Positions 1,687-50,281 of a stretch of 64,000 bases of DNA are shown here, one piece after another; position 1 is the first letter of the stretch; the number at the start of each line of letters is the position of its first letter. A model generated the notes under the pieces. That model was not told the origin of the DNA and did not search any database. It was given only the letters and a program-made list of their open reading frames with translations. A program made the position numbers and the translations under genes. The stretch is from Heterodontus francisci. Taxonomy: Eukaryota. The stretch is taken from NCBI RefSeq assembly GCF_036365525.1, contig NC_090371.1, positions 120,294,388 through 120,358,387 of the forward strand, written 5' to 3'.

Positions 1687-2628
1687 TGCTATGACCAGGT
1701 GAGGCATGGGTTTAGGACTTCCCTCTCGGCCTTTTCCTAGTTAAGCCATAACAGGGTTTAATTTTGAAAACACCCTGTATTTAGCTTCCCCTCAGTGAAT
1801 CCTTGTTCACTGCTCTCCAATTATAATGGCAAAGAAATCAATCAGACAGGTTTTCTTAAATCTAAACAAGAAAGGTATATGTTTATTAACCTTAAAACTC
1901 TAACTCGGTTAAAACTACTAAAAACATGCAATGCAACTACGCAAGCATGCATACGTGATAAACACACACGCAAGCAGAGATAGAGGAGGAGAAAGAAGGG
2001 GAAAGGTTTAAAGTAATAGCTGGAGTTCAATTACTTGTTTCGAGTTGGATGTAGAGTCTTTGATTGCAATTCAATCTTGCAGTTCTCGTTGGGGCCCAGT
2101 GCACACTTTCAAACGTGTTTTGCTGTAGGAGTCTTCTCTCTTGACGCTTGAGTTACTTCCGTGCTGGGGTCCCTGGAAATTCATGTGAGAGAGAGACAGG
2201 GAGAGATGCTCTCTTTTCAAGTTCAGTTGCAGTCTGTTTTCAAACTGTTCTGCGAGCACAATTCAACACTCCAAGTTGGCCAGCAGGTTAATCATAAAAC
2301 CAACTCCCTATCTGGACAACCTTTCCAGCAGTTTGTGAATTTCAAAGCTCTCGGTAGGGGCGGGGGTAGGGTGCAGTTCCGTCTCTTACACAGACAAGAT
2401 GTGGATCACGGTTGCCCAGACCAATCTCTGCTAATTGAATCAGTGAGCAGTTCCCATTGACTCTCTTTTTTATCAACTGTCTTTTAGAATGCAAAACAAG
2501 CAGTCATGTTTCCAGCCACTGTGATTTTAAACCAAGCTATTTTGTTCAGTCCAGTAACAGTTTAAAATTAAATATTCCATTTGACAAAATCAACATGTGT
2601 CACTTTGGCAGTTGTAGTTTTCGTGACA
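1687..2628 (-). mobile_element. 5' LTR of the Gmr1-like element
   Basis: TG...CA termini; the reverse complement starts tgtcacgaaaactac and is homologous to the LTRs at 13215 and 19743. Confidence 0.8.
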
Positions 2629-4888
2629 ATGTACTCTGGGTGGGGGACTTCAATGTCCATCATCAAGAGTAGCTCGATAGCACTACTACTGACTGAGCAG
2701 GCCGAGTCTTAAAGGACATAGCTTCTAGACTGGGTCTGCAGCAGGTGGTGAGGGAACCAACAAGAGGGAAAAACCTACTTGACCTTCTCCTCACCAATCT
2801 ACCTGTCGCAAATGCATCTGTCCATGACAGTATTGGCAGGAGTGACCGTTGCACAGTCTTTGTGGAGACGAAGTCTTGTCTTCACAGTGAGGGTACCCAC
2901 CATTGTGTTGTGCGAGACCGTGCTAAATGGGAAAGGTTTCGAACAGATCTAGCATCTCAAAACTGGGCATCCATGAGGTGGTGTGGGCAATCAGCAGCAG
3001 CAGAATTATATTCAACCACAATCTGTAACCTCATGGCCCGGCAGATTCCCCAACCTACCATTACCATCAAGCCAGGAGACCAACCCTGGTTCAATAAAGA
3101 GTGCAGGAGGACATGCCAGGTGCAGCACCAAGCATACTAAAAATGAGGTGTCAGCCTGGTGAAGCTACAACACAGGACAACTTGCATGCCAAACAGTGGA
3201 CGGGGCTAACAATCCCACAACCAACAAATCAGATCTAAGCTCTGCAGTCCTGCCACATCCAGCTGTGAATGGTGGTGGACAATTAAAAAACTGACAGGAG
3301 GAGGAAGCTCCACAAACATCGCCATCCTCAATGATGGGGGAGCCCAGCACATCAATGCAAAAGACAAGGCCAAAGCATTTGCAACCATTTTCAGCCAGAA
3401 GTGCCGAGTTGATGATCCATCTCAACCTCCTCCTGAGGTCCCCAGCAACACAGATGCCAGTCTTCAGCCAATCCGATTCACTCCACATAGTATCAAGAAA
3501 AGGCTGAAGGCACTGGATACTGCAAAGGCTATGTGGTAAATTGTCCAGGACAAATCCGACCCGGCCAATTACCGCCCTATCAGTAAAGTGATGGAAAGGG
3601 TCAATGATAGTGCTATCAAGCAGCACTTGCTGAACAATAACCTGCTCACTGACACTCAGTTTGGGTTCCACCAGGGCCACTCAGCTCCTGACCTCATTAC
3701 AGCCTTGGTCCAAACACAGATAAAAGAGCTGAACTCCAGAGGTGAAGTGAGAGTGACTGCCCTTGACATCAAGGTAGCATTTGACTAAGTATGGCATCAA
3801 GGAACCCTTGCAAAACTGGTGTCAATGGGAATCAGGGGGAAAACTCTACCTAGCACAAAGGCAAATGGTTGTGGTTGTTGGAGGTCAATCATCTCAGTCC
3901 CAGGACATCATTGCAGGAGTTCCTCAGGGTAGTGTCCTAGGCCCAACCATTTTCAGCTGCTTCATTAATAACCATCCTTCAATCATAAGGTCAAAAGTGG
4001 GGATGTTCGCTGATGATTGCACAATGTTCAGCACCATTAGCGGCTCCTCAGATACTGAAGCAGCCCATGTCCATATGCAGAAAGACTTGGACAACATCCA
4101 GGCTCTGGTTGTTAGGTGGCAAGTAACATATACGCCACACAAGTGCTCGGCAATGACCATCTCCAACAAGAGAGAATCTAACCATCTCCCCTTGACATTC
4201 AATGGCAATACCATCGATGAATCCCCCACTACCAACATCCTGGGGGTTACCATTGACCAGAAACTGAACTGGACTAGCTACATAAATACTGTGCCTTCAA
4301 GAGCAGGTCAGAGGTTGGGAATTCTGCAGCGTGTAACTCACCTCCTGACTCTCCAATGCCTGTCCACCATCTACAAGGCACAAGTCAGGAGTGTGATAGA
4401 ATACTCTCCACTTGTCTGGATGGGTACAGCTCCAACAACACCATCCAGGACAAAGCAGTCCACTTGATTGGCACCCCATTCATCATCTTCAACATTCAAT
4501 CCCTCCACCACCGATGCACAGTGGCAGCAGTGTGTACCATCTACAAGATACACTGCAGCAACGCACCAAGGCTCCTTTGACAGCACCTTCCAAACCCACA
4601 ACCTCTACCACCTAGAAGGACAAGGGCAGAAGATGCATGGGAACACCACCACCTGCAAGTTCCCCTCTAAGTCACACACCATCCTGACTTGGAACTTTAT
4701 CACCATTCCTTCACTGTTGCTGGTCAAAATCCTGGAACTCCCTTCCTAACAGCACTGTTGGTGCACCTACACCCCAAGGATGCAGCGGTTCAAGAAGGCA
4801 ACTCACTACCACCTTCTCAAGGGCAATTAGGGATTGGTAATAAATGCTGGCATAGCCAGCGATGCCCACATCCCCCGAACGAATAAAA
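2629..4888 (+). mobile_element. CR1-group LINE (same family as 13606-16895), 5'-truncated and degraded
   Basis: APE motif WVGDFNVHH, RT motifs GVPQGSVLGP and MFADD, shared 3' tail caagggcaattagggat...cccacatccc; internal deletion near 3535. Confidence 0.9.
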
Positions 4889-6124: not shown

Positions 6125-9100
6125 TGATTGAGTCATACAGCACAGAAACAGGCCCTTCGGCCCATCGTGCCTGTGCCGGCCATCAAGTGCCTAAATATTC
6201 TAGTCCCATTTTCCATCATTTGGCCCGTAGCTTTGTATGCTATGGCATTTCAAGTGCTCATCTTAATACGTCTTAAATGTTATGAGGGTTCCTGCCTCTA
6301 CCACTTCTTCAGACAGTGTAATCCAGATTCCAACCACCCTCTGAGTGAAAAGATTTTTCCTCAAACCCCCTCTAAACCTTCTGCCCCTTACCTTAAATCT
6401 ATGCCCCCTGGTTATTGACCCCCTCCGCTAAAGTCTCTTCCTATCTAACCTATCAAAGCCCCTGATAATTTTGTATACCTCAGTCATGTCCCCCCTCAGC
6501 CTTCTCTGTTCTAAGGAAAACAACCCTAGCCTTTTCGGTCTCTCTTCATAGCTGAAATGCTCCAGCCCAGGCAACATCCTGGTGAATCTCCTGTGCACCC
6601 TCTCCAGTGAAATCACATCCTTCTATAGTGTGGTGCCCAGAACTGTACACAATACTCCAGCTGTTGCCTAACAAGCATTTTATACAGCTCCATCATAACC
6701 TCCCTGCTCTTATATTCTATGCCTCGGCTAATAAAGGCAAGTATCCCATATGCCTTCCTAACCACCTTATCTACCTGTGCTGCTGCCTTCAGTGATCTAT
6801 GGACAAGTACTCCAAGGTCCCTCTGGTCCTCTGTACTTCCTAGGGCCATACCATCCATTGTATATTCCCTTGCCTTGTTAGTCCTCCCAAAATGCATCAT
6901 CTCACACTTCTCAGGATTAAATTCCATTTGCCACTGCTCTGCCCGTCTTACCAGCCCATCTATATCATCCTGTAATCTAAGGCTTTCCTCCTCACTATTT
7001 ACAACACTACCAATTTTCGCATCATCTGCAAACTTACTTATCATGCCTCCTATATTCATGTCTAAATCATTAATGTACACTACAAACAGCAAGGGTCCCA
7101 GCACCGATCCCTGCGGTACATCACTGGTCACAGGCTTCCACTCGCAAAAACAACCCTTGACCATCACCCTCTGCCTTCTGCCACTAAGGCAATTTTGGAT
7201 CCAATTTGCCATATTTCCCTGGATCCCATGGGCTCTTACCTTCTTAACAATCTCGCATGCGGGACCTTATCAAAAGCCTTACTGAAGACTACATCACCTG
7301 CTGTACCCTTATCTACACATTGAGTCACCTGCTCGAAAAATTCAATCAAGTTAGTTAGACACGATCTCTCCCTGACAAAGCCATGCTGACTATCCCTGAT
7401 TATTCCCTGCCTCTCCAAATGGAGATTAATCCTGTCGCTCAGAACTTTTTCCAATAGTTTCCCTACCACTGATGTTAGACTCACTTGCCTGTAATTACCT
7501 GGTTTATCCCTGCTACCCTTCTTGAATAATGGTACCACATGCATTGTCCTCCAGTCCTCTGGCACCTCTCCCGTGGCCAGAGAGGATCTGAAAATTTGTA
7601 TCAGTGCCCCTACTATCACTTCCCTTGCCTCACACAACAGCCTGGGATACATCTCATCTGGGTCTGGGGATTTATCCACTTTTAAGCCCGCTAAAACATC
7701 TAATACTTCCTCCCTTTCAATGTTAATATGTTCAAGTATATTGCCACCTATGTTCTCCGGCTCCACACACAGATTGTCACTTTGGTCCCTAATGGGCCCT
7801 ACTCTTTCCCTGGTTATCCTCTTGCCCTTAATATACTTATAAAACGCCTTAGGATTTTCCTTTATATTGACCGCCAATGTTTTTTCATGTCCCCTCTTCC
7901 CTCTCCTAATTATTTTTTTAAGTACCCCCTACACTTTCTATACTCCTCTAATGCCTCCATTGTTTTCAGCGCTCTGAATCTGCCATAATCCTCCTTTTTT
8001 TTCCTGATGCAATACTCTATATCCCTTGACATCCAGGATTCCCTGGACTTGTTGGTCCTACCCTTCACCTTAATGGGTACATGTTGACTCTGAACTCTCA
8101 CTATTTCCTCCTCGAATGCCTCCCACTGGCCTGATGTAGACTTTTCTACAAGTAGCTGCTCCCAGTCCACTTTGGCCAGATCCTGTTTTATCAAATTGAA
8201 ATCTGCTTTCCCCCAATTCAGTACCTTTATTTCTGGCCCTTCTTTGTCCTTTTCCATAACTACCTTAAATCTTACGGAGTTATGGTCACTATCCCCGAAA
8301 TGCTCTCCCACTGATACTTCTACCACTTGTCCAGCTTCATTCCCTAGGATTAGGTCCAGTACTGCCCCTTGTAGGACTTTCTACGTACTGGCTCAAAAAG
8401 CTCTCCTGTATGCATTTTAAGAATTCCTCCCCTTTTAAGCCTTTTGCACCAAGATATTAGATGTTGAAATCCCCTACTATTATTACCCTATTATCTTTAC
8501 ACCTATCTGAGATTTGCCTACATATCTGTTCCTCTATCTCTTCCTGACTGTTTGGAGGCCTGTAGTACACGCCCAGCCAAGTGATTGCCCCCTTTTGTTC
8601 TTGAGTTCTACCCATATGGCCTCATTTGAGGAACCTTCTAAGATATCATCCCTCCTTACTACAATAATTGACTCCTTGATCAACAGTGCAATACCACCTC
8701 CTCTTTTATCCCCTCCCCTATCACGCCTGGAGATTCTATACCCTGGAATATTGAGTTGCCAGTCCTGCCCCTCCCTCAGACCTGTCTCTGTGATAGCAAT
8801 AATATCATAATCCCATGTGCTAATCAATGCCCTCAATTCATCTGCCTTATTAGTAAGACTCCTTGCATTAAAGTATATGCAATCCAACCTTGCATTTTTC
8901 ACTTGTGCTTTAACAGGTCTATATTTGCTCTGCCTTCCAGCCAAACTCAGTTTCTCTTCTATATTTGACTGTGCCTCACCCCCTACTATACCTCCACTCT
9001 GTATCCCACCCCCCTGCCAAATTAGTTTAAACCCCGCCCCCCCCCCCACAACAGCACTAGCAAACCTCCCAGCAAGGATGTTGGTCCTGTTCTGATTCAG

Positions 9101-10410
9101 GTGCAACCCGTCCAACTTGTACAGGTCCCACCTTTGCCAGAAACAGACCCAGTGATCCAGGAACCTAAAGCTCTCCCTCCTGCGTCATCTCCTCAGCCAC
9201 GCATTCATCTGCTCTATCCTCCTATTCCTATACTCACTAGCACGTGGCACAGGGAGTAATCCAGATAGTACAACCTTAGAGGTCCTGCTTTTTAATCTGC
9301 TACCTAGCTCCTTAAATTCTTGTTGCAGGACCTCATCCCTCTTTCTACCTATGTCATTGGTACCAATGTGTATCACGACCTCTGACTGTTCACCCTCCCC
9401 CTTCAGAATGTCCTGCAGCCACTCTGTAACATTCTTGACCTAAGCACCAGGGAGGCAACATACCATCCTGGAGCCTCGTTCGCGGCTACAGAAACGCCTA
9501 TCTGCACCCCTTATGATAGAATCCCCTATCACTATAGCTCTTCCACCCCTTTTCCTCTCCTGCTGTGCAGCAGAACCCTCCATGGTGCCACGGACCTGGC
9601 TGTTGCTGCTTTCCCCTGGGAGGTCAGCTCCCCCAACAGTATCCAAAGCGGTATATCTGTTTGAAAGCGGAATGGCCACAGGGGACTCCTGCAGTACCTG
9701 CCTGCGCCTACTACTCCGTCTGGTTTACACCCATCCCTTTTCTGTCTGTGCTGCCATTACCTGTGGTGTGACCACCTCACTAAGCGTGCTATCCACGACG
9801 TCCTCAGCATCGCGGACACTCCACAGTGAATCCACCCGCAGCTCCAGCTCCATATTGCTGGTAGTCAGTAGCTGCAAATGGATACATTTCCTGCACACAT
9901 GGTCGTCAGGGACGCTGGAAGCATTCCTGATTTTCCACATAGCGCAGGAGGAGCATATCACAGGGCTGTCTCCTGCCATGACTTACCCTTAGATTAATTA
10001 GTTACTCCCTTAATTAAAAAATACTAATTACACTAGGGGCCTTGTTCTACCCACTACAATCTAAAGTCCTTAATAAGTTACACTGAATTAAAAAAAAACA
10101 CTTTAGTAGTACTCACCTTATCACCAGAGGCTTTCTTTCAACAAAAAATCTTTCCCCTTTTTTTTAAGCTATTTAATTGCATTAACAGCTGGTACTCACC
10201 CAACCAATCATCTTGCAGATTTCCCATGATGTCACTGTAAGTTTTTTTTTTCGAGTCTCAGCGCACGTCGAGAGAGGGAGCAGGTCCGCCAGCCACCGCC
10301 GTTCGTCTTCAGGTAAGTGAAGGCCTTGAGCCCCGTGCTCTCTTTTACAGCTCCCTCTCCGGATCAGCTTCCGCCCAGGTCTGCCAGCTGCCGCCGCTCC
10401 TGTCTTCAGG
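6125..10410 (-). mobile_element. Near full-length CR1 LINE: 5' UTR, ORF1 (zinc finger plus SGNH esterase) and ORF2 (APE-RT), disrupted
   Basis: ORF1 pieces 9725-9979 (CSSC..CRKC), IVIGDS, HIGTND, DGLH; ORF2 pieces 6428-8880 (FNARSL, ITET, SDH, QGSVLGP, FADD); CR1 3' tail near 6130. Confidence 0.93.
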
Positions 10411-10544
10411 TATTCATTTAGCTTCCCCTTAAGTGTATCTATGCTACTTGTTTCAACTGTTCCATGTGGTAGTAAGTTCCAAATTTAACCACTCTCTCTT
10501 GCCTGAAATCCTCATTGGATTTATCAGTGACTATCTTATCACAG

Positions 10545-12407
10545 GGAGAATGCTGTCACTGAGACTGCCCTCAATGCAGCCCAGCCTCTACCAGTCATGG
10601 ATGAGCTGGACATACAGCCAACCAAATCGGAACTCAGTGATGCCATTGATTCTCTAGCCAGCGGAAAAGCCCCTGAAATTACCCCTGAAATAATCAAGAG
10701 TGCCAAGCCTGCTATACTCTCAGCACTACATGAACTGCTATGCCTGGGCTGGGACGAGGGAGCAGTACCCCAGGACATGCGCAATGCCAATATCATCACC
10801 CTCTATAAAAACAAAGGTGACCGCGGTGACTGCAACAACTACCGTGGAATCTCCCTGCTCAGCATAGTGGGGAAAGTCTTTGCTCGAGTCGCTCTGAACA
10901 GGCTCCAGAAGCTGGCCGAGCGCGTCTACCCTGAGGCACAGTGTGGTTTTCGTGCAGAGAGATCGACCATTGACATGCTGTTCTCCCTTCGTCAGATACA
11001 GGAGAAATGCCGTGAACAACAGATGCCCCTCTACATTGCTTTCATTGATCTCACCAAAGCTTTTGACCTCGTCAGCAGACGTGGTCTCTTCAGACTACTA
11101 GAAACGATCGGATGTCCACCAAAGCTACTAAGTATCATCACCTCATTCCATGACAATATGAAAGGCACAATTCAACATGGTGGCTCCTCATCAGAGCCCT
11201 TTCCTATCCTGAGTGGTGTGAAACAGGGCTGTGTTCTCGCACCCACACTTTTTGGGATTTTCTTCTCCCTGCTGCTTTCACATGCGTTCAAATCCTCTGA
11301 AGAAGGAATTTTCCTCCACACAAGATCAGGGGGCAGGTTGTTCAACCTTGCCCGTCTAAGAGCGAAGTCCAAAGTACGGAAAGTCCTCATCAGAGAACTC
11401 CTCTTTGCTGACGATGCTGCTTTAACATCTCACACTGAAGAGTGCCTGCAGAGTCTCATCGACAGGTTTGCGGCTGCCTGCAATGAATTTGGCCTAACCA
11501 TCAGCCTCAAGAAAACGAACATCATGGGGCAGGACGTCAGAAATGCTCCATCCATCAATATTGGCGACCACGCTCTGGAAGTGGTTCAAGAGTTCACCTA
11601 CCTAGGCTCAACTATCACCAGTAACCTGTCTCTAGATGCAGAAATCAACAAGCGCATGGGAAAGGCTTCCACTGCTATGTCCAGACTGGCCAAGAGAGTG
11701 TGGGAAAATGGCGCACTGACACGGAACACAAAAGTCCGAGTGTATCAGGCCTGTGTCCTCAGTACCTTGCTCTACGGCAGCGAGGCCTGGACAACGTATG
11801 CCAGCCAAGAGCGACGTCTCAATTCATTCCATCTTCGCTGCCTTCGGAGAATACTTGGCATCAGGTGGCAGGACTATATCTCCAACACAGAAGTCCTTGA
11901 AGCGGCCAACACCCCCAGCTTATACACACTACTGAGTCAGCGGCGCTTGAGACGGCTTGGCCATGTGAGCCGCATGGAAGATGGCAGGATCCCCAAAGAC
12001 ACATTGTACAGCGAGCTCGCCACTGGTATCAGACCCACCGGCCGTCCATGTCTCCGCTATAAAGACGTCTGCAAACGCGACATGAAATCGTGTGACATTG
12101 ATCACAAGTCGTGGGAGTCAGTTGCCAGCATTCGCCAGAGCTGGCGGGCAGCCATAAAGACAGGGCTAAATTGTGGCGAGTCGAAGAGACTTAGTAGTTG
12201 GCAGGAAAAAAGACAGAGGCGCAAGGGGAGAGCCAACTGTGCAACAGCCCGGACAAACAAATTTCTCTGCAGCACCTGTGGAAGAGCCTGTCACTCCAGA
12301 ATTGGCCTTTATAGCCACTCCAGGCGCTGCTTCACAAACCACTGACCACCTCCAGGAGCGTATCCATTGTCTCTCGAGATAAGGAGGCCCAAAAGAAAAA
12401 AAAAAGA
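10545..12407 (+). mobile_element. Young RTE-clade LINE, 5'-truncated, open RT ORF 10597-12345 (582 aa)
   Basis: GVKQGCVLAP, LLFADD, C-terminal CxxC..H zinc finger; 12-bp TSD atcttatcacag at 10533-10544 and 12408-12419. Confidence 0.95.
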
Positions 12408-13214: not shown

Positions 13215-13605
13215 TGTGACGGAAATCACACCTTCCAAAATGAGACATATTAATTTCGTCATATGGAACATTATTTTTGAACTGTTACTGGACTTAAAAT
13301 AACTTGTTTAAAAAGACCACAACTGTGGCTGAAAACATGGCTGCACATTTACATTCTAAAAGACAGTTGCATGAAGAAGACAATGGGAGTATTCCCTGAT
13401 TCAATTAGCCAGATGGATTTTATCCACAGTGATGATCAAGAGACATTGAGAGTAATTGAGTCAGCATCCCAAAGCCCCCTGTGAGTGTCTGGTGAGCTTG
13501 AAGTAATCCACAAATCTCACAGGCAAGGCTGCTGTAAACAAGGCGTTGGTCATGTGACTACTGGCCAACCTGGAGTTAATTGAATTGAGCTCACAGAACA
13601 GTTTG

Positions 13606-16600
13606 GGTAGGCGGTGGTGTAGTGGTATTATCACTGGACTAGTAACCCAGAGACCCAGGGTATTTCTCTGGGGACATGGGTTCAAATCCCACCACAGCAG
13701 AAGGTGGAATTTGATATTTAATTAATAAATCTGGAATTAAAAAAAGCGAGTCTAATGATGGCCATGAAACCATTGTCGATTGTTGTAAAAACCCATCTGG
13801 TTCACTAATGTCCTTGAAGGAAGGAAATCTGCTGTCCTTACCTGGTCTGGCCTACATGTGACTCCAGACCCACAGCAATGTGGTTAACTCTTACATGCCC
13901 TCTGAAATGGCCTATCAAGCCACTCAGTTGTATCTAACCACTAGCAAGTCTATAAAAAGCAATGAAATTGGATGGACCATCCGGCATCGACCGAGGCACC
14001 GGAAACGACAACGGCAAACCCAGCCCTGTCGACCCTGCAAAGTCCTCCTTACTAACATCTGGGGGCTTGTGCCAAAGTTGGGAGAGCTGTCCCACAGACT
14101 AGTCAAGCAACAGCCTGACGTAGTCATACTCAAGAATCATACCTTGCAGATAATGTCCCAGACACTACCATCACCATCCCTGGGTATGTCCTCTCCCACC
14201 GGCAGGACAGACCCACCAAAGGTGGTGGCACAGTGCTATACAGTAGGGAGGGAGTTCCCCTGGGAGTCCTCAGCATCAACTCCGGACCCCATGAAGTCTC
14301 ATGGCATCAGGTCAAACATAGGCAAGGTAACCTCCTACTGATTACCACCTACTGCCCTCCCTCAGCTGATGACTCAATACTCCTCCATGTTGAACACCAC
14401 TTGGAGGAAGCACTGAGGGTGGCAAGGGCACAAAATGCGCTCTGGGTGGGGGACTTCAATGTCCATCACCAAGAGTGGCTCAGTAGCACCACTACTGACC
14501 GAGCTGGCCGAGTCCTAAAGGACATAGCTGCTAGACTGGGTCTGCGGCAGGTGGTGGGGGAACTAACACGAGGGAAAAACATACTTGACCTCATCCTCAC
14601 CAATCTGCCTGCCGCAGATGCTTCTGTCCATGACAGTATTGGTAGGAATGACCGCCGCACAGTACTTGTGGAGACGAAGTCCCACCTTCACATTGAGGAT
14701 ACCGTCCATCGTGTTGTGTGGCACTATCACCGTGCTAAATGGAATAGATTTCGAACAGATCTAGCAATGCAAAACTGGGCATCCATGAGGTGCTGTGGGC
14801 CATCAGCAGCAGCAGAATTGTACTCATCCACAATCTGTAACCTCATGGTCCGCATATCCCCCACTCTACCATTACCATCAAGCCAGGAGACCAACCCTGG
14901 TTCAATGAAGAGTGCAGGAGGGTATGCCAGGAGCAGCACCAGGCATACCTCAAAATGAGGTGTCAACCTGGTGAAGCTACAACCCAGGACTACTTGCATG
15001 CCAAACTGTGTAAGCAGCATGCGATAGACAGAGCTAAGTGATCCCATAACCAACGGAACAGATCTAAACTCTGCAGTCCTGCCACATCCAGCCGTAAATG
15101 GTGGTGGACAATTAAACAACTAACTGGAGGAGGTGGCTCCACAAATATCCCCATCCTCAATGATGGGGGAGCCCAGCACATCAGTGCAAAAGATAAGGCT
15201 GAAGCATTTGCAACAATCTTCAGCCAGAAGTGCCGAGTTGATGATCCATCTCTGCCTCCTCCTGAAATCCCCAGCATCACAGATGCCAGACGTCAACCAA
15301 TTCGATTCACTCCACGTGATATCAAGAAACGACTGAAGGCACTGGATACTGCAAAAGCTATGGGCCCTGACAATATTCCGGCAATAGTACTGAAGACCTG
15401 TGTTCCAGAACTTGCCGCGCCCCCAGCCAAGCTGTTCCAGTACAGCTACAACACTGGCATCTACCCGGCAATGTGGAAAATTGCCCAGGTATGTCCTGTA
15501 CACAAAAAGCAGGACAAGTCCAACCCGGCCAATTACCGCCCCATCAGCCTACTCTCAATCATCAGTAAAGTGATGGAAGGTGTCATCAACAGTGCCATCA
15601 AGCAGTATTTGCCTAGCAATAACCTGCTCAGTGACGCTCAGTTTGGGTTCCGCCAGGGCCACTCAGCCTCTGACCTCATTACAGCCTTGGTTCAAACATG
15701 GACAAAAGAGCTGAACTCAAGAGCTGAGGTGAGAGTGACTGCCCTTGACATAAAGGCAGCATTTGACCGAGTATGGCATCAAGGAGCCCAAGCAAAACCG
15801 AGGTCAATGGGAATCAGGGGGAAAACCCTCCACTGGCTGGAGTCGTACCTAGCGCAAAGGAAGATGGTTGTGATTGTTGGAGGTCAATCATCTCAGCTCC
15901 AGGACATCACTGCAGGAGTTCCTTGGGGTAGTGTCCCGGGCCCAACCATCTTCAGCTGCTTCATCAATAACCATCCTTCAATCATAAGGTCAGAAGTGGG
16001 GATGTTCGCTGATGATTGCACAATGTTCAGCACCATTGGTGACTCCTCAGATACTGAAGCAGTCCGTGTAGAAATGCAGCAAGACCTGGACGATATCCAG
16101 GCTTGGGCTGATAAGTGGCAAGTAACATTCGCACCACACAAGTGCCAGGCAATGACCATCTCCAACAAAAGAGAATCTAACCATCACCCCTTGACATTCA
16201 ACGGCATTACCATTGCTGAATCCCCCACTATCAACATCCTAGGGGCTACCATTGACCAGAAACTGAACTGGAGTAGCCATATAAATACTGTGGCTACAAG
16301 AGCAGGTCAGAGGCTAGGAATCCTGAGGCGAGTAACTCACCTCCTGGCTCCCCAAAGCCTGTCCACCATCTACAAGGCACAAGTCAGGAATACTCTCCAC
16401 TTGCCTGGATGGGTGCAGCTCCAACAACACTCAAGAAGCTCGACACCATCCAGGACAAAGCAGCCCGCTTGATTGGCACACCATCTACTAACATTCACTC
16501 CCTCCACCACCGACGCACAGTAGCAGCAGTGTGTACCATCTACAAGATGCACTGCAGCAATGCAACAAGGCTCCTTAGACAGCACCTTCCAAACCTGCGA

Positions 16601-16895
16601 CCTCTACCAACTAGAAGGACAAGGGCAGCAAATACATGGGAATACCACCACCTACAAGTTCCCCTCCAAGTCACACACGATCCTGGCTTGGAACTATATC
16701 GTCGTTCCTTCACTGTCGCTGGGTCAAAATCCTGGAACTCCCTTCCTAACAGCACTGTGGGTCTACCTACCCCAAATGGACTGCAGCGGTTCATGAAGGC
16801 AGCTCACCACCACCTTCTCAAGGGCAATTAGGGATGGGCAATAAATGCTGGCATAGCTGGTGACGCCCACATCCCATGAATGAATTAAAAAAAAA
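13606..16895 (+). mobile_element. Full-length compact CR1-group LINE (L2/Crack/Daphne-like, clade unresolved) with a tRNA-derived head and a single APE-RT reading frame carrying a few frameshifts
   Basis: Inserted cleanly into an LTR (cagtttg | LINE | aaaagagactgcaac); ORF pieces 13880-14341, 14233-14958, 15360-16472 and 16409-16831; A-tail. Confidence 0.92.
13615..13689 (+). promoter_or_regulatory. RNA polymerase III type-2 internal promoter (A box 13615-13625, B box 13679-13689)
   Basis: TGGTGTAGTGG and GGTTCAAATCC within a tRNA-like head at the LINE 5' end. Confidence 0.8.
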
Positions 16896-19800
16896 GAGAC
16901 TGCAACTGAACTTGAAGAAGCGAGCATCTTTCTCTCTCACACGTAAAGTTCCAGGGACCCACAGAAGTAACTCAAGCCTCAATACAGAAGACCAGCGAAA
17001 CAAGTTTGAAAAAGTGGCCAACTGAGATTTGGACTCGTCTGTTGCAAAGTAAACTAACGGGAAAAGCCCATGAGGTTTATTCCATGTTGCCAGATGAGAG
17101 TTCATGCAATTATGAACTGACAAAAAATGCTATCCTCGGTATATATGAGTTAGTACCAGAAGCCTACCGCCAGAAGTTTAGAAACCTCAAAAAGCAAGCT
17201 GATCAAACTTACTTGGAGTTTGAGGGGAGTAAGCAGCTGGCTTTTGACCAGTGGTTGAGGGGTCTTAAAGTGCAGCCCAGTTATGAAAACCTCAGAAAGG
17301 TAATTTTGCTAGAGGAATTTAAAAACTCTCTCCCACTCTCCATCAAGACACATGTGGAGGAACAAAAAGTTCATCGAGTGAAGCAAGCCACAGTTCTGGC
17401 TGATGAGTTTGCTCTAATATACAAGTCGGTTTCCCAGGGGAAAAACTTTCCTAGTCATCTCCACAAATCTGAAAAGGACAAAGGGTGGGAAGGTGATAGA
17501 AGCCCAAGCATTCCTGGGAGAGAAAGAAAAGCCGGAGACACTGGGGGCCCTCCTCCAGCCCAAAAGGAAGGTGCTGTAAGTATGAGTGAGACCTGGAGAC
17601 CTGTGTGCTTCCGTTATAATAAGTCAGGTCATCTAAGAGCTGACTGCTGGAAACTATGGGGAAAACCTGTAGAATTAATCAGGGCACATCCGCCTAGTGC
17701 AGGAGAAAGGACCCTGATGGAAAGCACAGCTGAACAAGCTGTGGCTTTAACTGCAGCAGTTGTAAGGCCAGAAAACATACTGCTATAGGTGCAGGTACAT
17801 TTAATAGGGTTCCTGAAGGTTATCAGGATTTTGTGTCTGAAGGGAGTGTAACCCTATACCCCTCGAGTGGGGCAAGCAAGCCCACAGTAATCCTCAGGGA
17901 CACAGAGGCCACCAGATCCCTTTTACTGGGAAAAGGCCTGATATTTCCCCCAGAGAGTGTAGTAAATAACAGAATGGTGGTAAATGGTATTGGAGGGCAG
18001 TGTACACCTGTACCTTTACATCGGGTGCACTTGGAGTGGTGACCTAGTTTCGGGACCGGTGACCGTAGGGATTGTTCCTAGTTTACCTGTGGACAGCGTT
18101 GACCTGCTCCTAGGTAATGATCTGGCGGGCGCGAAGGTGGTAGCCTCCCCAGTAGTGATAGAGAGACCGCAGGAGGTAAGAGACAGTGTCGTGGCAGGAA
18201 ATGGTCCCCTCCTGTTTCCCTACATGTCTAGTGAATCGGGCCATGATCAAACCAGCTGCCCCCAGAGGAGACTGAATTGGCACTGCAGACAGATGACAAT
18301 GAGGTCTGTCTGTCTGAGACTTTCTCTGGAAAGTTAAAGGACCCAGGGAATGAATTAAATAAATCTTCCCCAGCTAAGGCTCAGTGAACTGACCCAGTAC
18401 TGAGAGAGTTAGCACAGGCTGCCCAGTCTGAAATTGAAGCAGAGGGAGTCCCTGATTGCTACTATTTAAAGAATGAGGCACTGATGAGGAAATGGAGTTC
18501 TCCTCACAGACCTGAGAGCAAGGAGTGGACAGTAGTTCACCAGTTAATGTTGCCGCAGAGGTACTGGAGAGAAATATTAAGAATGTTAAGATTACAGTGG
18601 CTGTACATGTTGGTATACAAAAAGCCAAAGTCCGCATAAGACAGCAGTTTGACGGGCCAAAACTCCACAAAGATATGGTGGAGTACCGTAGGAGTTGCCA
18701 CATGTGCCCAGTTAAGGGGAAACCCCAACCTACAGTGAAATCTGCACCCCTAAGTCCTGTACCAGCGTTTGGAGGACCCTCTAGCAGAGGACTGTCGACT
18801 GTAAGGGACCCCTGATGAGAACAAAAGGTGACAGACAGGCACAAGGCTGGCAAGAGGTTAAAGAGGAAAGGGGAAAAAGGGACAAAAAGGACAGGTTAAA
18901 GGAGATCCGGGAGGTTTCCCAAATGGAAACCCCTACTGTCTGGTCAGCCAACCCCAAAATGTTGGGAAAATTAGACACACATCCTCTATGTAAATGCTGA
19001 CACTAGAAGCACCCCACCGGAGTTGCTAACAGCATTTACAGAAACCTGCAGGGGCAAAGAGAGTCCTCAGGAAGGCAGAGAAACTGTGAGGGTGATGCCT
19101 CATCTAGTCGAAGTGCTTCAGGGGAGTGCAGTAGAATCTGGACAAATACCTGCATGCAGGAATGTTCCAGAGGACAAAGCGTAGATTAGCAAAGAATCCA
19201 CCCCCACAGTCTGGAAAAAAAGGAACCAACCATGCTCTAAAGTGAAAACCACTTGCCTGACTCATCAGGGCACTGAAAGAGAGATCAGAGTGGATCCACC
19301 CATGCTGACTCCCATAAACAGAACTCCAAACCAGGGTTATTAAATCTCACCCTTACCCACCACCCCCCCTTCCCACCTCCCGCAGATCTCAACAGGAACA
19401 AAGGCGCGCTAGGCAGTCATGGAAATGCGCAAACTGCAAACCTCCCCAAAAATCACATGTTTACTTAGATGCCCATTCCCAACATATTGCAGGCTGGTAG
19501 TGAAGAAATTTCAAACCCCTTTAGGCAACACATAACTATCTCAGACCCACCTCAAGGGAAAAGGGGCAGTTTAAAACAGCACTGCTACAAAGGAAATACA
19601 GGCTGTAACAATTTTTAGGATTTCTGAATGAATGAGAGTGAATGAGAGAAATACATGTCTGTTTTCCTGTACCTTCTCTTCTTTCTATTTTTATCATGAA
19701 ATGCTCTCCTAATAGTGCATTTCATTCTGCTGGATGTGGAGGTGTGACAGAAACCACACCTTCCAAAATGAGGCATATTAATTTCATCATAAGAACATTA

Positions 19801-20437
19801 TTTTTGAACTGTTACTGGACTTGAAATAACTTGTTTAAAAAGACCACAAAAGTGGCTGAAAACATGGCTGCACATTTGCATTCTAAAAGACAGTTGCATG
19901 AAGAAGAAAATGGGAGTGCCTCCCTGATTCAATTAGCCAGATGGATTTTCCATAATGATGATGAAGAGAGATTGAGAGTCATTGATTCAGCATCCCACCG
20001 CTCCACTGTGAGTGTCAGGTGAGCTTGAAGGAATCCACAAATCTTGCAGGTGAGGCTGCTCTAAACGAGGAGCATGACTAATCTACTGGCCAACCTGGAT
20101 TTAATTGAATTGTGCTGTCATTGAACTTAAGCTTGTGCTATTCTGTATGTATCCTTCTTGTCCGATATATTAATACATTGATAGTACTGCATCATCTTCT
20201 GGAATGTCTTGGATAGAAACAAAGTGTAGTGGGCACTAGCGATGTAGAATTAAAGGAGTCCTAAAGAGCATTAGTTGTCTAAATAGGTAGAAAATCAAGA
20301 GGCTTTAGCTTTTGGTTCATAAGGGTTATGAAGTTTTCTAACCAGCGAAACCATTGTGAAGGTAACAGTTCATTAAAAATACCTTAAATTTAAATCATAC
20401 CGGTGGCAGAAAGTTGTGAGAGCATGTCCCATCCATG

Positions 20438-25680: not shown

Positions 25681-26030
25681 TTTTATTTATTATTCGTTTG
25701 TGGGATGTGGGTGTCGCTGGCTAGGCCAGCATTTAGTGCCCATCCCTAATTGACCTTGAACTGAGTGGCTTGCTAGGCCATTTCAGAGGGCATTTTAAGA
25801 GCCAACCACATTGCTATGGGTCTGGAGTCACACATAGGCCAGACCAGGTAAGAACAGCAGATTTCCTTCTCTAAAGGAAATTAGTGAACCAGATTGGTTC
25901 AACAATCGGCAATGGTTTCATGGTCGTTATTAGACTAGCGTTTCTAATTCCAGATTTATTAATTGAATTCAAATTTCACCATCTGCCCTGTGGGATTTGA
26001 ACCCATGTCCCCAGAGCATTGGCCTGGGCT
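25681..26030 (-). mobile_element. tRNA-headed SINE sharing both ends with the 13606 LINE
   Basis: The reverse complement has the B box gggttcaaatccc, the core gtgactccagaccc..aagccactcagtt and the LINE 3' tail. Confidence 0.88.
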
Positions 26031-26811
26031 CTGCTGGAAATTAAATTACTGTTCTGGTTAATAACACATGGTTAAATCACCACTGTGGACCACAATCACA
26101 ATCTTTAATGAATCCTTATTCAAATTACTTCAATTGTCACTTATAAACTCCACATTGAACATCTTTTTTTAATGAACAGGTTTGTTCCAAATCAAACAGA
26201 AGAAAGTTGTTTGCAGTTTTAGTGCTTTATAAAGCTGATATCCACCCAGTGCCAACATGTTTAGCAACTGAAAAGAAAAATAATTTGCTGCTCTTTAACT
26301 CAGAACAATGCACAGTAAAACCAGTGGTTTGAATGGAAATGGGGACACCCCAGGGATCATTGTCTCATAGTCCTTCTATGCTTAGGAGCCAGTGAGGTTA
26401 ATGTAATTTAACTATTGGGAGATGAGTTTGCTCCACTGCATGCCCCAGCAAAAGTCAGCAGTCGGATGTTTACACAGATTGAGCAGAATGCATTGGGTGA
26501 TCAGAAGCAAATGGAGCTAGCACAGGAGAAGCTGTAAACATCTGGCCCAAAAGTCAGTTTATCCATTCTGAGGTGTTGAAGATCTAGACCTCAGGGTCCC
26601 TATTTTTAAAAGAGTTATACTTTCTTAGCATCAAAGATTACTGCAGTCATTGGAGCAACTGCCTGTGCGCAGCAGATAGTGTGGAGGAGTGCACAGCCTG
26701 CATATATGATGTGCTGATGTGGAAAATAGAAATTATATTGTGCAACACATAGCATGGACATCTACAGTGGAGTCCGCCATCTGGAGGCCCTAAAGCCAAT
26801 TTTACCATCCT

Positions 26812-48888: not shown

Positions 48889-50281
48889 TTTATTTATTCT
48901 TTCATGGGATGTGGGCATTGCTGGCAAGGCCAGCATTTGTTGCCCATCCCTAATTGCCCTTGACAACTGAATGGCTTGCTTGGCCATTTCAGAGGGCAGT
49001 TAAGAGTCAACTTCATTGCTGTGGGTCTGGAGTCACATGTAGGCCAGTTGGCAGGCACTAAATAGTAGAGTGCCATAAGGATCTGTGCTGGGGCCACAGT
49101 TATTTACAATTTATATTAATCACTTAGATGAAGAGACAGAGTAATGTATCTAAGTTTGCTGATGATACAAAGGTAGGTGGAAAGATAAGCTGTGGGAAGG
49201 GCACAGTCTGCAAAGACAGGTTAAGAGAGTGGGCAACAAGATTGCAGATGGAGTATAATGTAGGGAAGTGTGAAGTTATGCACTTTGGTCGTAAGAATAG
49301 AAAAGCAGAATATTTTTTGAAAAGTGTGAAACTGGTCCATGTTCAGAGAGACTTGGGTGTGCTTGTACATGGAATGCAGAAAGTTAACATGCAGCTACAG
49401 CAAGCAATTAGGAAGTCAAATGGAATGTCGGCCTTTATTGCAAGGGGATTGGAGTACAGGACTAAGGAAGCGTTGCTACAATCGTACAGGGTTTTGGTGA
49501 GACCACATCTGGAATACTATGGGAAGTTTCAGTCTCCACATTTAAGAAAGGATGTTCTTGCATTGGAAGCAGTGCAGCAAAGGTTCACAAGATTGGTCCC
49601 TGGAATGAGGGGCTTGTCCTATGAGAGACTAAGTAAATTGGGGCTATATTCTCTGGAGTTTAGAAGGATGCTAGGCGATCTCATTGAAGCATACAAGATT
49701 CTGAAGGGGCTGGATAGGGTAATCACAGAGATTATTTCTGCTGGTCTGGGAATCTAAAACACGGGGGCACAGTCTCAGGATAAGGGACCAATCATTTAGG
49801 ACTGAGATGAGGAGAAATTACGTCACTCAAAGGGTTGTGAATCTTTGGAATTCTCTACCCCAGAGGGTAGTGGATGCTCCATTGTTGAATACATTTAAGG
49901 CCTGGATAAACAGATTTTTGGTGTCTCAGGATCAAGGGATATGACGAGCAGGCGGGAAAGTGGAGTTGAATCCTAAGATCAGCCATGATGGTTTTGAATG
50001 GTGGAGCAGGCTCGATGAGCCATATCATCTGCTGCTGCTCCTATTTCTTGTGTTCTTGTGTAAAGACAGCAGATTTCCTTCCCTGAAGGACATTAATGAA
50101 CCTGTTGGGCTTTTATGACAGTTGACAGTCTCAATAGTGGTGCATGAAACTAGCTTTCAATTCCAGATTATTAATTAATTGAATGTATTAATTTTAAATT
50201 CCACCAGCTACCGTGGTGAGATTTTAGCCTGGGCCTCTAGATTACTAGTCCAGTGACATTACCACTGCACCACTGTGTCCC
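48889..50281 (-). mobile_element. tRNA-headed SINE (13606-LINE related) interrupted by a + strand CR1 fragment (about 49056-50060)
   Basis: SINE tail and core at 48889-49055 resume at 50061 (taaagacagcagatttccttcc) and run to the head ccactgcaccac; CR1 ORF 49128-49757. Confidence 0.85.

Follow-up and report, generated by a model that had tools for sequence, protein, structure and literature searches.

A tRNA-headed Zenon LINE of Heterodontus francisci with a sequence design that fits transcription by RNA polymerase III

The elasmobranch LINE Zenon carries a tRNA-derived head with A and B boxes and encodes its enzymes in a frame free of RNA polymerase III (Pol III) terminators, a sequence design that fits Pol III transcription well. 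In the 64,000-nucleotide stretch analysed here (the window), positions 13606–16895 are a dead, decayed copy of this element. The family is the Zenon of PMC13343379, as catalogued in its main text and supplement rows, and hence is already known as a LINE. A tRNA-type promoter combined with the lack of T-runs and of an in-frame start codon makes a protein-coding RNA produced by Pol III likely, and we consider it probable, with appreciable reservation, that active Zenon would be transcribed end to end by Pol III from the boxes of its head. Of the Pol III interpretation advanced by the initial annotation, the family-wide head and the terminator-free frame stand, while transcription by Pol II with avoidance of T-tracts still fits and the family proved to be catalogued.

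The element, its head and its companion SINE

13606–16895, forward strand: decayed Zenon LINE of full length that diverges by 3.2% from the family majority and has no target duplication
13606–13699, forward: tRNA-derived head with a long variable arm, common to the companion SINE
13615–13625, forward: A box; the family majority fits the consensus
13661–13667, forward: TATTTCT, the one motif in the young majority that resembles a non-canonical terminator; about half of the young heads have it and the old lineage does not
13679–13689, forward: B box; its spacing from the A box is 53 bases in both lineages, young and old
13940–16831, forward: frame for APE endonuclease and reverse transcriptase (Exo_endo_phos_2, RVT_1), interrupted in the present copy; ORF1 absent
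16832–16895, forward: 3′ UTR common to LINE and SINE, AATAAA at 16840–16845, short A tail
2628–4888, forward: older 5′-truncated Zenon copy with two private TTTT
25682–26033, reverse: 5′-damaged companion SINE copy, in which head and leader are followed directly by the final ~75 bases of the LINE
48889–49047, reverse: 5′-truncated companion SINE copy

The frame of the copy at 13606–16895 is broken by 1-base deletions near 14132 and 14851, a stop at 15039 and a 10-base deletion near 16386. The clean insertion originally described is present, and an empty insertion site is visible at 2107–2283, but the element does not lie in an LTR as had been claimed. The insertion point is ~14 bases inside the end of the match between the LTR pair 13215–13591/19743–20116, which places it just inside the LTR element. 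No convincing target duplication was found among 16 copies examined. The older copy reads TTTT at 3388 and 3950, where TCTT is found in the younger copy, as had been noted, and the family majority is TCTT at both positions; a search with the older copy as query returned mostly young copies.

In agreement with Zenon, a member of the CR1 group, the family has a single APE and reverse transcriptase frame without ORF1 and a poly-A tail (median A run of 7–8 in parsed tails), and a 14-base leader word is present in seven rows of the PMC13343379 supplement, the first 400 letters of which match by eye. A reverse transcriptase tree containing unlabelled relatives only gave low support. The family frame, 975 codons in a ~3.3-kb element, is under purifying selection, the codon changes that separate the young and old lineages being synonymous in 62 cases and non-synonymous in 29. 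No in-frame AUG precedes the endonuclease in the family, the first in-frame ATG occurring at codon 284 of 975. Zenon, with the SINE counted in, accounts for ~5% of a 0.79-Mb sample of the H. francisci genome. Relatives of the Zenon protein were absent from viral contigs. Eighty of 464 metagenome relatives were kept, 76 with a frame of 250 or more codons; no clear tRNA head was found among the 80, in which ARAGORN at a lowered threshold produced scattered weak calls, and two short metagenome frames lack T4 but contain TTT. Contigs of public runs X15 and X17 span the whole element, are possibly derived from DNA, and show no start, strand or cap.

The tRNA-like head and both boxes were found exactly where they had been proposed, each box in this copy carrying one CpG-type change. 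ARAGORN called a tRNA at 13611–13699, while the only Rfam match on this copy was a sub-threshold one to tRNA-Sec (E 0.32). Contrary to the initial annotation, head and frame are not directly joined; a ~240-base leader separates the B box from the coding start. Most copies reaching the 5′ end carry the head, with 25 of the 30 best full-query loci extending into it, or 19 of 24 after six with shared flanks were dropped. When loci were picked by element positions 353–505 (the frame start) alone, head or leader was found upstream in 29 of 30, a set that includes the copy at 13606–16895 and three identical duplicates; 21 reach the first 8 bases, one is cut at 348, and no headless full-length form occurs among the 30. 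The head is also present in the older lineage (50 copies in this comparison; 54 in the ATG and spacing counts below) and in 7/7 elasmobranch consensus rows from five species, within the first 400 letters of the PMC13343379 supplement. Thus, the tRNA head is a family trait and not a one-off. The lineages differ at 2/18 non-CpG sites within the A and B boxes vs 12/51 between them, where change is faster than at four-fold sites (32/241), and the box changes sit at purine-degenerate positions of the consensus.

The companion SINE is the Zenon element minus its coding part, the two having head, 5′ start and tail in common. Young LINE and SINE copies begin at one and the same point, 10 bases before the A box, with a G at −10 in 82% of 35 LINE and 87% of 24 SINE copies. 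AATAAA near the 3′ end is retained in 103/114 matched tails. An origin of the SINE by splicing was rejected, its junction not falling on GT..AG. T4–5 precedes the A tail in 8/39 parsed young LINE tails, and the reading of such runs as traces of Pol III oligo-U ends was also rejected because the combined T and A length is constant and TTTTAAAA exceeds AAAATTTT by 130 to 26 in random DNA.

Terminator deficit and the transcribing polymerase

On the forward strand, 13606–16895 contains no run of four or more T and eight TTT, as well as 17 runs of at least four A, confirming what had been read from the copy, and it lies within the longest TTTT-free gap of the window (13418–17242). The neighbouring RTE at 10545–12407, described as having several TTTT, has five T4+ runs. 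TTTT absence is significant in base shuffles (0 vs 4.5, P 0.009) and not clearly so in synonymous-codon shuffles (0 vs 2.1, P 0.08); alone it is weakly beyond chance, the strong signal being a deficit of TTT, with 4 observed vs 13.0 expected and 0/5000 shuffles as low. The family majority lacks T4 whereas control LINEs contain it, as the suggested purge of terminators would predict. Across 24 copies (76 kb) there are 8 T4 runs, none of them shared by two copies. The TTT deficit is present in every third of the frame, and the observed/expected ratio of 0.31 compares with a lowest value of 0.73 among the 76 metagenome LINE frames.

Terminators were counted as T4+, T3VT, TVT3 and T2[AC]T2, a set taken from the portion of PMC3141230 available. 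The Zenon sense coding strand contains 0 canonical or non-canonical terminators vs 6.0 expected (1/3000 codon shuffles), while the antisense strand contains 27 vs 28.6 expected. Same-genome controls retain theirs, RTE with 12 vs 17.4 expected and CR1 with 21 vs 22.1, and 0/76 metagenome frames are terminator-free. The old lineage has 0 terminators in 2062 bases. As expected of a Pol III unit, frame and 3′ UTR contain none; the head of young copies has a single weak motif.

The deficit is mostly one of any T-T step across codon junctions (6 vs 25.0 expected), with T-TC, T-TA and T-TG depleted as well. TTT spanning junctions occurs at 0/27 and 0/26 chances in Zenon vs 8/47 and 8/51 in RTE, and once junction T-T is held fixed TTT is no longer clearly deficient (4 vs 5.5, P 0.15). 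Human Pol III is not stopped by isolated TTT (PMC3141230, as far as the available text extends), which together with the junction-wide deficit indicates a purge that goes further than Pol III alone would require. RTE is also short of T-rich windows (5-of-8 windows 29 vs 54.6; T-T 0.65).

Under the Pol III reading, TFIIIC would bind the A and B boxes, and Pol III would start ~10 bases upstream of the A box, read 3.3 kb and stop at the first T-run in the flank, read-through of this length being possible, we propose, because selection removed T-runs. The encoded reverse transcriptase would recognise the 3′ UTR and prime at the A tail, and the companion SINE would arise repeatedly by loss of the coding part.

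The strongest competitor, which we regard as unlikely but in need of serious consideration, is transcription by Pol II as in other LINEs, the head being, or lying within, an internal Pol II promoter. On a short unit without introns T-tracts would halt Pol II as well, and T-runs would be avoided for that reason. The prevailing view assigns LINEs to Pol II (PMC5786205, in the part available), and T-tracts within the first kilobases, near promoters, terminate mammalian Pol II (PMC11610936, likewise). However, the ends reported in the accessible part of the latter are T6-type and promoter-proximal, whereas the Zenon deficit concerns TTT over the whole 2.9 kb, and the RTE and CR1 of this genome, which are about as long, still have 12 and 21 terminator-like sites. 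The milder T-cluster deficit of RTE and the tolerance of TATTTCT, a weak Pol III terminator, in young heads favour Pol II, as does the retained AATAAA, but AATAAA and ATTAAA also occur at element positions 118 and 130; furthermore, the boxes are intact and the start is identical to that of the SINE.

There is only a slim chance that the head serves as a Pol III promoter for the SINE alone, with the LINE expressed from host read-through transcripts, keeping or re-acquiring its head by template switching and owing its T deficit to mutational bias of the reverse transcriptase or to selection against UU, for instance by a putative antiviral nuclease. The dinucleotide-wide nature of the deficit, with no TTA among 92 leucines in addition to the loss of T-T, would suit this, the heads of the SINE and the LINE have evolved in step, and LINE-small RNA chimeras do form (PMC13174262, in the section available). 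Conversely, the family has a sharp 5′ end at the SINE start and yielded no headless full-length locus in the 30 cited above, the deficit is strand-specific and T-specific, and TA at junctions is less depleted in Zenon (55/69.8) than in RTE (38/74.0). A one-off SINE-LINE chimera lacking TTTT by chance, to which the low T content (0.21) and the P of 0.08 would lend themselves, counts as refuted by the head on nearly all 5′-complete copies in two lineages and five other species and by the 1/3000 terminator deficit.

The leader and the start of the enzyme frame

13780–13929, forward: conserved leader, common to the SINE; 7/148 non-CpG sites differ between lineages vs 32/241 four-fold sites
13811–13840, forward: compact H-type pseudoknot predicted for the family; the present copy carries mutations in it
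13902–13927, forward: predicted hairpin with a 7-base anticodon-like loop holding the family's last in-frame stop codon (mutated here)
13940–13942, forward: family GCT codon (ACT in this copy), loop-complementary, in the enzyme frame; predicted frame-setting point
13962–13964, forward: out-of-frame ATG at the start of a 46-codon frame; the old lineage has ATA here

The leader is constrained between lineages (P 0.008), its last hairpin differing at 0/26 sites. We tentatively suggest that uncapped RNA may be translated through this leader: the anticodon-like loop of the hairpin would pair with the GCU codon 12 bases downstream, a pairing that would set the enzyme frame without AUG, and the start would work like pseudoknot I of dicistrovirus intergenic IRESs. 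The loop/codon pattern occurs in head and leader only, being absent from the Zenon frame, RTE and CR1; it arises in 8/3000 shuffles, a figure for a pattern chosen after being seen. The distance from GCT to the enzyme is 33 bases in 42/45 young and 37/54 old copies, and the frame is kept in both lineages and, by eye, in 4/5 published species (PMC13343379 rows), one being 3 bases shorter after the GCT codon and 1 base shorter before it. The three Squalus rows are out of register or unscorable for the pattern. The pairing comprises only 3–4 bases, in the enzyme frame and with little covariation; compensatory changes are nearly absent, one being seen by eye in a published row in which two adjoining pairs are broken. 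The leader folds no better than shuffles (z −1.06), and Rfam, run on the mutated copy at 13606–16895 only, returned no IRES family at E ≤ 1. The hairpin word was rejected as a link to viral contigs: a 15-base word gave 120 chance matches, the longest alignment was 35 bases (E 1.1) and the best E was 0.007 over 22 bases.

Independently of the polymerase, it is plausible, if short of probable, that translation involves no IRES-like fold and uses the out-of-frame ATG at 13962 followed by a −1 frameshift, or read-through or re-initiation after a short upstream frame ending at the TAG in the hairpin loop. This ATG is kept in the consensus of all five published species, as far as the rows extend, in-frame ATGs lie upstream of the TAG in both lineages, and CR1 ORF2 of the same genome is also without an early ATG. 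Against this, 94% of the 54 copies of the old lineage read ATA in place of the ATG, the distance from TAG to GCT is off by 1 base in one published row judged by eye, and homologues have a basic N-terminus, like that of the enzyme frame.

Pol III transcription together with an IRES-like start is a doubtful conjunction on present sequence evidence. If both hold, Zenon would be an autonomous retrotransposon with a Pol III-made 3.3-kb coding RNA and a cap-free, dicistrovirus-like tandem-pseudoknot IRES from a cellular genome; conceivably, such an element would have been running in sharks and rays since before their split, and the SINE it spawned might keep a ribosome-binding leader. By the usual account, Pol II transcribes LINEs and Pol III makes RNAs that are short and non-coding. 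Neither rule would survive a successful LINE family that operates by Pol III; such a family would mean that Pol III is able to make a translated 3-kb RNA in animals, and would offer a route for SINE origin from LINEs in which the head is already in place. It would also represent a compact natural cassette of promoter, cap-free start and endonuclease-reverse transcriptase, of interest for gene insertion tools.

Comparison with known systems

R2 and other ribozyme-headed non-LTR elements produce uncapped RNA without a Pol II promoter of their own and are translated from non-AUG starts. R2 RNA, however, is co-transcribed by Pol I and processed by an HDV-like ribozyme, and the R2 element is site-specific, with an endonuclease other than that of Zenon. 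No Pol III-transcribed LINE is described in the titles and abstract openings of the literature searched.

The elasmobranch Zenon rows in the available part of PMC13343379 (CarCar, HypSab, RhiTyp, ScyCan, SquAca) have the same head, leader and frame start by eye, main lengths of 3244–3314, no ORF1 and an A tail, whereas its hagfish and coelacanth rows do not start with this head. The main text mentions neither tRNA nor polymerase III, and head, terminator purge, companion SINE and non-AUG start are absent from the portion of its Zenon account available. Lepidopteran Zenon likewise repeatedly yields a short, internally deleted derivative of its 5′ and 3′ parts, Persaeus, for which the accessible text of PMC6740152 gives no tRNA homology and no Pol III promoter, whereas the shared 5′ part of shark Zenon is a tRNA head with boxes.

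The tRNA-derived SINE2 elements with bipartite LINE parts (PMC5786205) and SacSINE1 and CmiSINE of cartilaginous fish (PMC5499810) likewise combine, in the parts of these articles available, a tRNA head, Pol III boxes and a LINE-derived tail. The SacSINE1 and CmiSINE tail is derived from L2 and that of the companion SINE from Zenon. The published SINEs are short and non-coding and gained their head after deletion, whereas in the shark family it is the LINE itself, with its 975-codon frame, that bears A and B boxes in a tRNA-derived head.

Type 6 dicistrovirus intergenic IRESs, as described in the available portions of PMC10275262 and bioRxiv 2024.04.17.590008, comprise 120–190 bases with tandem pseudoknots, the last of which pairs an anticodon-loop mimic to a codon and sets a non-AUG frame. 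The Zenon leader has no Rfam match to them, and the named L1.1 motifs were not recognised by eye. With predicted pseudoknots before a non-AUG frame and a short pairing, it is a candidate works-alike; type 6 IRESs are reported in these sources from viruses, whereas the Zenon leader belongs to a cellular genome.

The Zenon copy and its family

The features of the Zenon LINE copy in the window, all on the + strand, are as follows.
13606-16895, Zenon LINE copy
13606-13699, tRNA-like head
13615-13625, A box
13679-13689, B box
13780-13929, leader (family positions 171-320)
13940, site of the family's GCT codon (family position 331), ACT in this copy

Both boxes were found where the initial annotation had placed them, the head is called as a tRNA by ARAGORN (13611-13699), and the proposed APE-RT coding is borne out by Pfam matches to an APE endonuclease and a reverse transcriptase. 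An Rfam search of the copy gave sub-threshold matches only. The frame is dead, carrying two 1-base deletions, one stop and one 10-base deletion. The claimed insertion into an LTR holds with regard to an empty site at 2107-2283 but not to its exact place, which is just inside the LTR element, ~14 bases beyond the LTR match 13215-13591/19743-20116, and no target duplication accompanies the insertion of 13606-16895. The interrupted host is an LTR retrotransposon-like element (13215-20116) whose terminal repeats (13215-13591 and 19743-20116) are 88% identical, with 16916-17788 holding a gag-like frame; an inverted relative occupies 1-2629. Elsewhere, 50060-50273 (-) matches head and leader at 69% identity and may represent a SINE or LINE lineage of far greater age.

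A first look through the 6.0-Gb genome turned up 33,507 candidates, and among the best 30 loci the head is present in 25, as expected of a family trait and not of a one-off chimera; with six loci of shared flanks removed, it is reached in 19 of the 24 best. Because the full query favours full-length copies, the search was repeated with positions 353-505 only. In the resulting 30 loci, including the window copy and three identical duplicates, head or leader lies upstream in 29, the first 8 bases are reached in 21, one is cut at 348, and no alternative shared 5' region was found. A sample of 80 evenly spaced stretches of 10 kb each, of which one is all N, contains 41.8 kb (~5%) of family and companion SINE. 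Taken column by column, the majority sequence from 24 copies (2.3–7.6% divergent from it) has 3298 bases and a single frame of 975 codons stop to stop, and lacks an ORF1. An older lineage of the same layout was discovered through two old copies in a random genome sample; of 56 distinct loci, 50 were used and 6 closer to the young form removed, and its codons differ from the young majority by 62 synonymous and 29 non-synonymous changes. Half or more of the family's words are present in public runs from at least five organisms. One Zenon copy inside another, together with the flanking DNA, recurs across several small contigs (loci L012, L015-L018, L020, L021), through segmental duplication or assembly redundancy.

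T runs, promoter and transcription

As judged from its sequence, the Zenon LINE is probably transcribed by Pol III. The reported absence of TTTT from 13606-16895 is confirmed (0 T4 runs, 8 TTT), as are the abundance of AAAA (17 runs of at least four A), the TTTT of the neighbouring RTE (5 T4+ runs over 1.9 kb) and the reading of both TTTT sites of the sister copy (2628-4888) as TCTT in the family majority. The majority frame contains 4 TTT runs versus 13.0 expected from synonymous-codon shuffles (0/5000 shuffles as low), and A, C and G runs match expectation. The purging of T4 from the consensus stands as a count (0 versus 2.1) but not in significance (P only 0.08). No TTT deficit is observed in the control LINE families of the same genome (RTE 25 vs 26.5, CR1 34 vs 36.4) or in 76 metagenome LINE frames (lowest ratio 0.73, median 1.0, Zenon 0.31). 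With non-canonical terminators (as listed in the available text of PMC3141230) added to the canonical, the Zenon sense strand contains 0 versus 6.0 expected (1/3000 shuffles) and the antisense strand 27 versus 28.6; RTE has 12 vs 17.4 (P 0.03), CR1 21 vs 22.1, and none of the 76 metagenome frames has zero. The deficit extends over every third of the frame and is shared by the old lineage, and each of 8 T4 runs within 76 kb of Zenon copies is private.

The head is conserved at its boxes, where 2/18 non-CpG positions differ between young and old lineages versus 12/51 between the boxes, the 53-base spacing being the same in both. The box changes sit on purine-degenerate positions of the A/B-box consensus. 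The companion SINE comprises LINE positions 1 to ~320 joined to the last ~75 bases, and young LINE and SINE share a start 10 bases upstream of the A box (82% of 35, 87% of 24). At 41 diagnostic sites, 34 SINE heads span old-like to young-like in parallel with 88 LINE heads, and the SINE junction occurs in four types, all at one spot; this head range and these junctions fit repeated SINE birth by deletion, the rival being the opposite direction, repeated head exchange. The head between the boxes (13626-13678; 12/51) changes faster than four-fold sites (32/241), a rate that could come from evasion of host silencing or from exchange of heads.

Transcription by Pol II is unlikely but has AATAAA, retained in 103/114 Zenon tails, on its side, as well as TATTTCT in approximately half of young heads; near promoters Pol II too ends at T-tracts (PMC11610936, available text), and isolated TTT was no terminator in the human assays described in the available text of PMC3141230. 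Also against the Pol III reading, the core of the signal is a scarcity of any T on both sides of a codon junction (6 vs 25.0; RTE 24 vs 36.7), and the TTT deficit loses significance once this is held fixed. Expression by read-through, with a T deficit of different cause, is improbable.

The young RTE family (10531-12407, loci L031-L050; copies 97–99% alike, one majority frame of 1069 codons) retains T4 runs but also has fewer T-rich windows than expected (5 T in 8: 29 vs 54.6). In a random DNA sample (L241-L320), TTTTAAAA is five times commoner than AAAATTTT (130 vs 26), and several repeats end in A tails of the form T4-5A5-7, suggesting a general A-run-to-palindrome conversion.

Leader and translation start

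An uncapped Pol III RNA would require another way of starting translation. The earliest in-frame ATG of the family majority is codon 284, beyond the endonuclease; from the last in-frame stop to the endonuclease the sole ATG is out of frame, is present in the published sequence of all five species and reads ATA in 94% of old-lineage copies. In the CR1 family represented by the copy at 6400-9300 (-), ATG first appears at codon 271 of a 988-codon majority frame. Leader positions 171-320 are constrained (7/148 lineage differences vs 32/241 four-fold sites, P 0.008). A predicted hairpin at 293-318, identical in both lineages, has a 7-base loop of anticodon type. The loop triplet is the complement of a GCT that lies at 331, in the enzyme frame and twelve bases past the hairpin, and a second compact pseudoknot may form at 202-231. 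This loop/codon pattern, chosen after the fact, occurs in 8/3000 shuffles and is confined to head and leader, with none in the frames of Zenon, RTE and CR1. In the A-rich stretch following the GCT, 9/16 sites changed between lineages, leaving the frame unshifted. By eye, the register is kept in the published rows of 4/5 species (18, 18, 18 and 15 bases), including a whale shark row although its linker before the GCT is 1 base shorter, and three Squalus rows are out of register or unscorable (17, 10, unscorable). In the family majority, the head anticodon loop (13637-13643) and the leader hairpin loop (13912-13918) differ by one base; the latter may be a remnant of a duplicated tRNA arm.

By analogy with type 6 IRESs, an IRES-like start of the enzyme frame is possible though less likely than not, and the leader is not classed as a type 6 member because the loop-codon pairing is only 3-4 bases, leader folding energy is unremarkable (z -1.06), an Rfam search of the mutated window copy found no IRES, and covariation in the leader is nearly absent. 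Read-through, re-initiation or frameshifting are plausible alternative ways of making the enzyme.

Relation to known elements

A 14-base leader word occurs in seven rows of the available PMC13343379 supplement. Each of these rows is an elasmobranch Zenon consensus, the species being five sharks and rays, and their opening 400 letters agree by eye with head, leader and frame start. Zenon is defined in that paper by an absent ORF1 and an A tail, and the available main text gave no match to tRNA or polymerase III; CR1-Zenon-like LINEs receive a single mention in the available text of a whale shark preprint. The closest protein relatives, some from lancelet and insects, are 35–45% identical. Three annotated shark proteins (P0002, P0013, P0016) contain pieces 70–86% identical to the Zenon frame, which probably reflect exonisation of copies or faulty gene models. 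The family itself is already known. Its design, undescribed in the literature covered, combines a tRNA head with kept boxes, a SINE-like start, strand-specific terminator loss, a constrained leader and the lack of an AUG start. Open full-text literature yielded no account of a LINE made by Pol III.

Hagfish and coelacanth Zenon rows of the same supplement begin differently from the window family. In the available text on lepidopteran Zenon and Persaeus (PMC6740152), a short element is likewise born repeatedly by deletion, the origin proposed here for the shark SINE. The putative Zenon hairpin and its GCT match the pseudoknot I layout of type 6 IRESs, as described in the available parts of PMC10275262 and bioRxiv 2024.04.17.590008.
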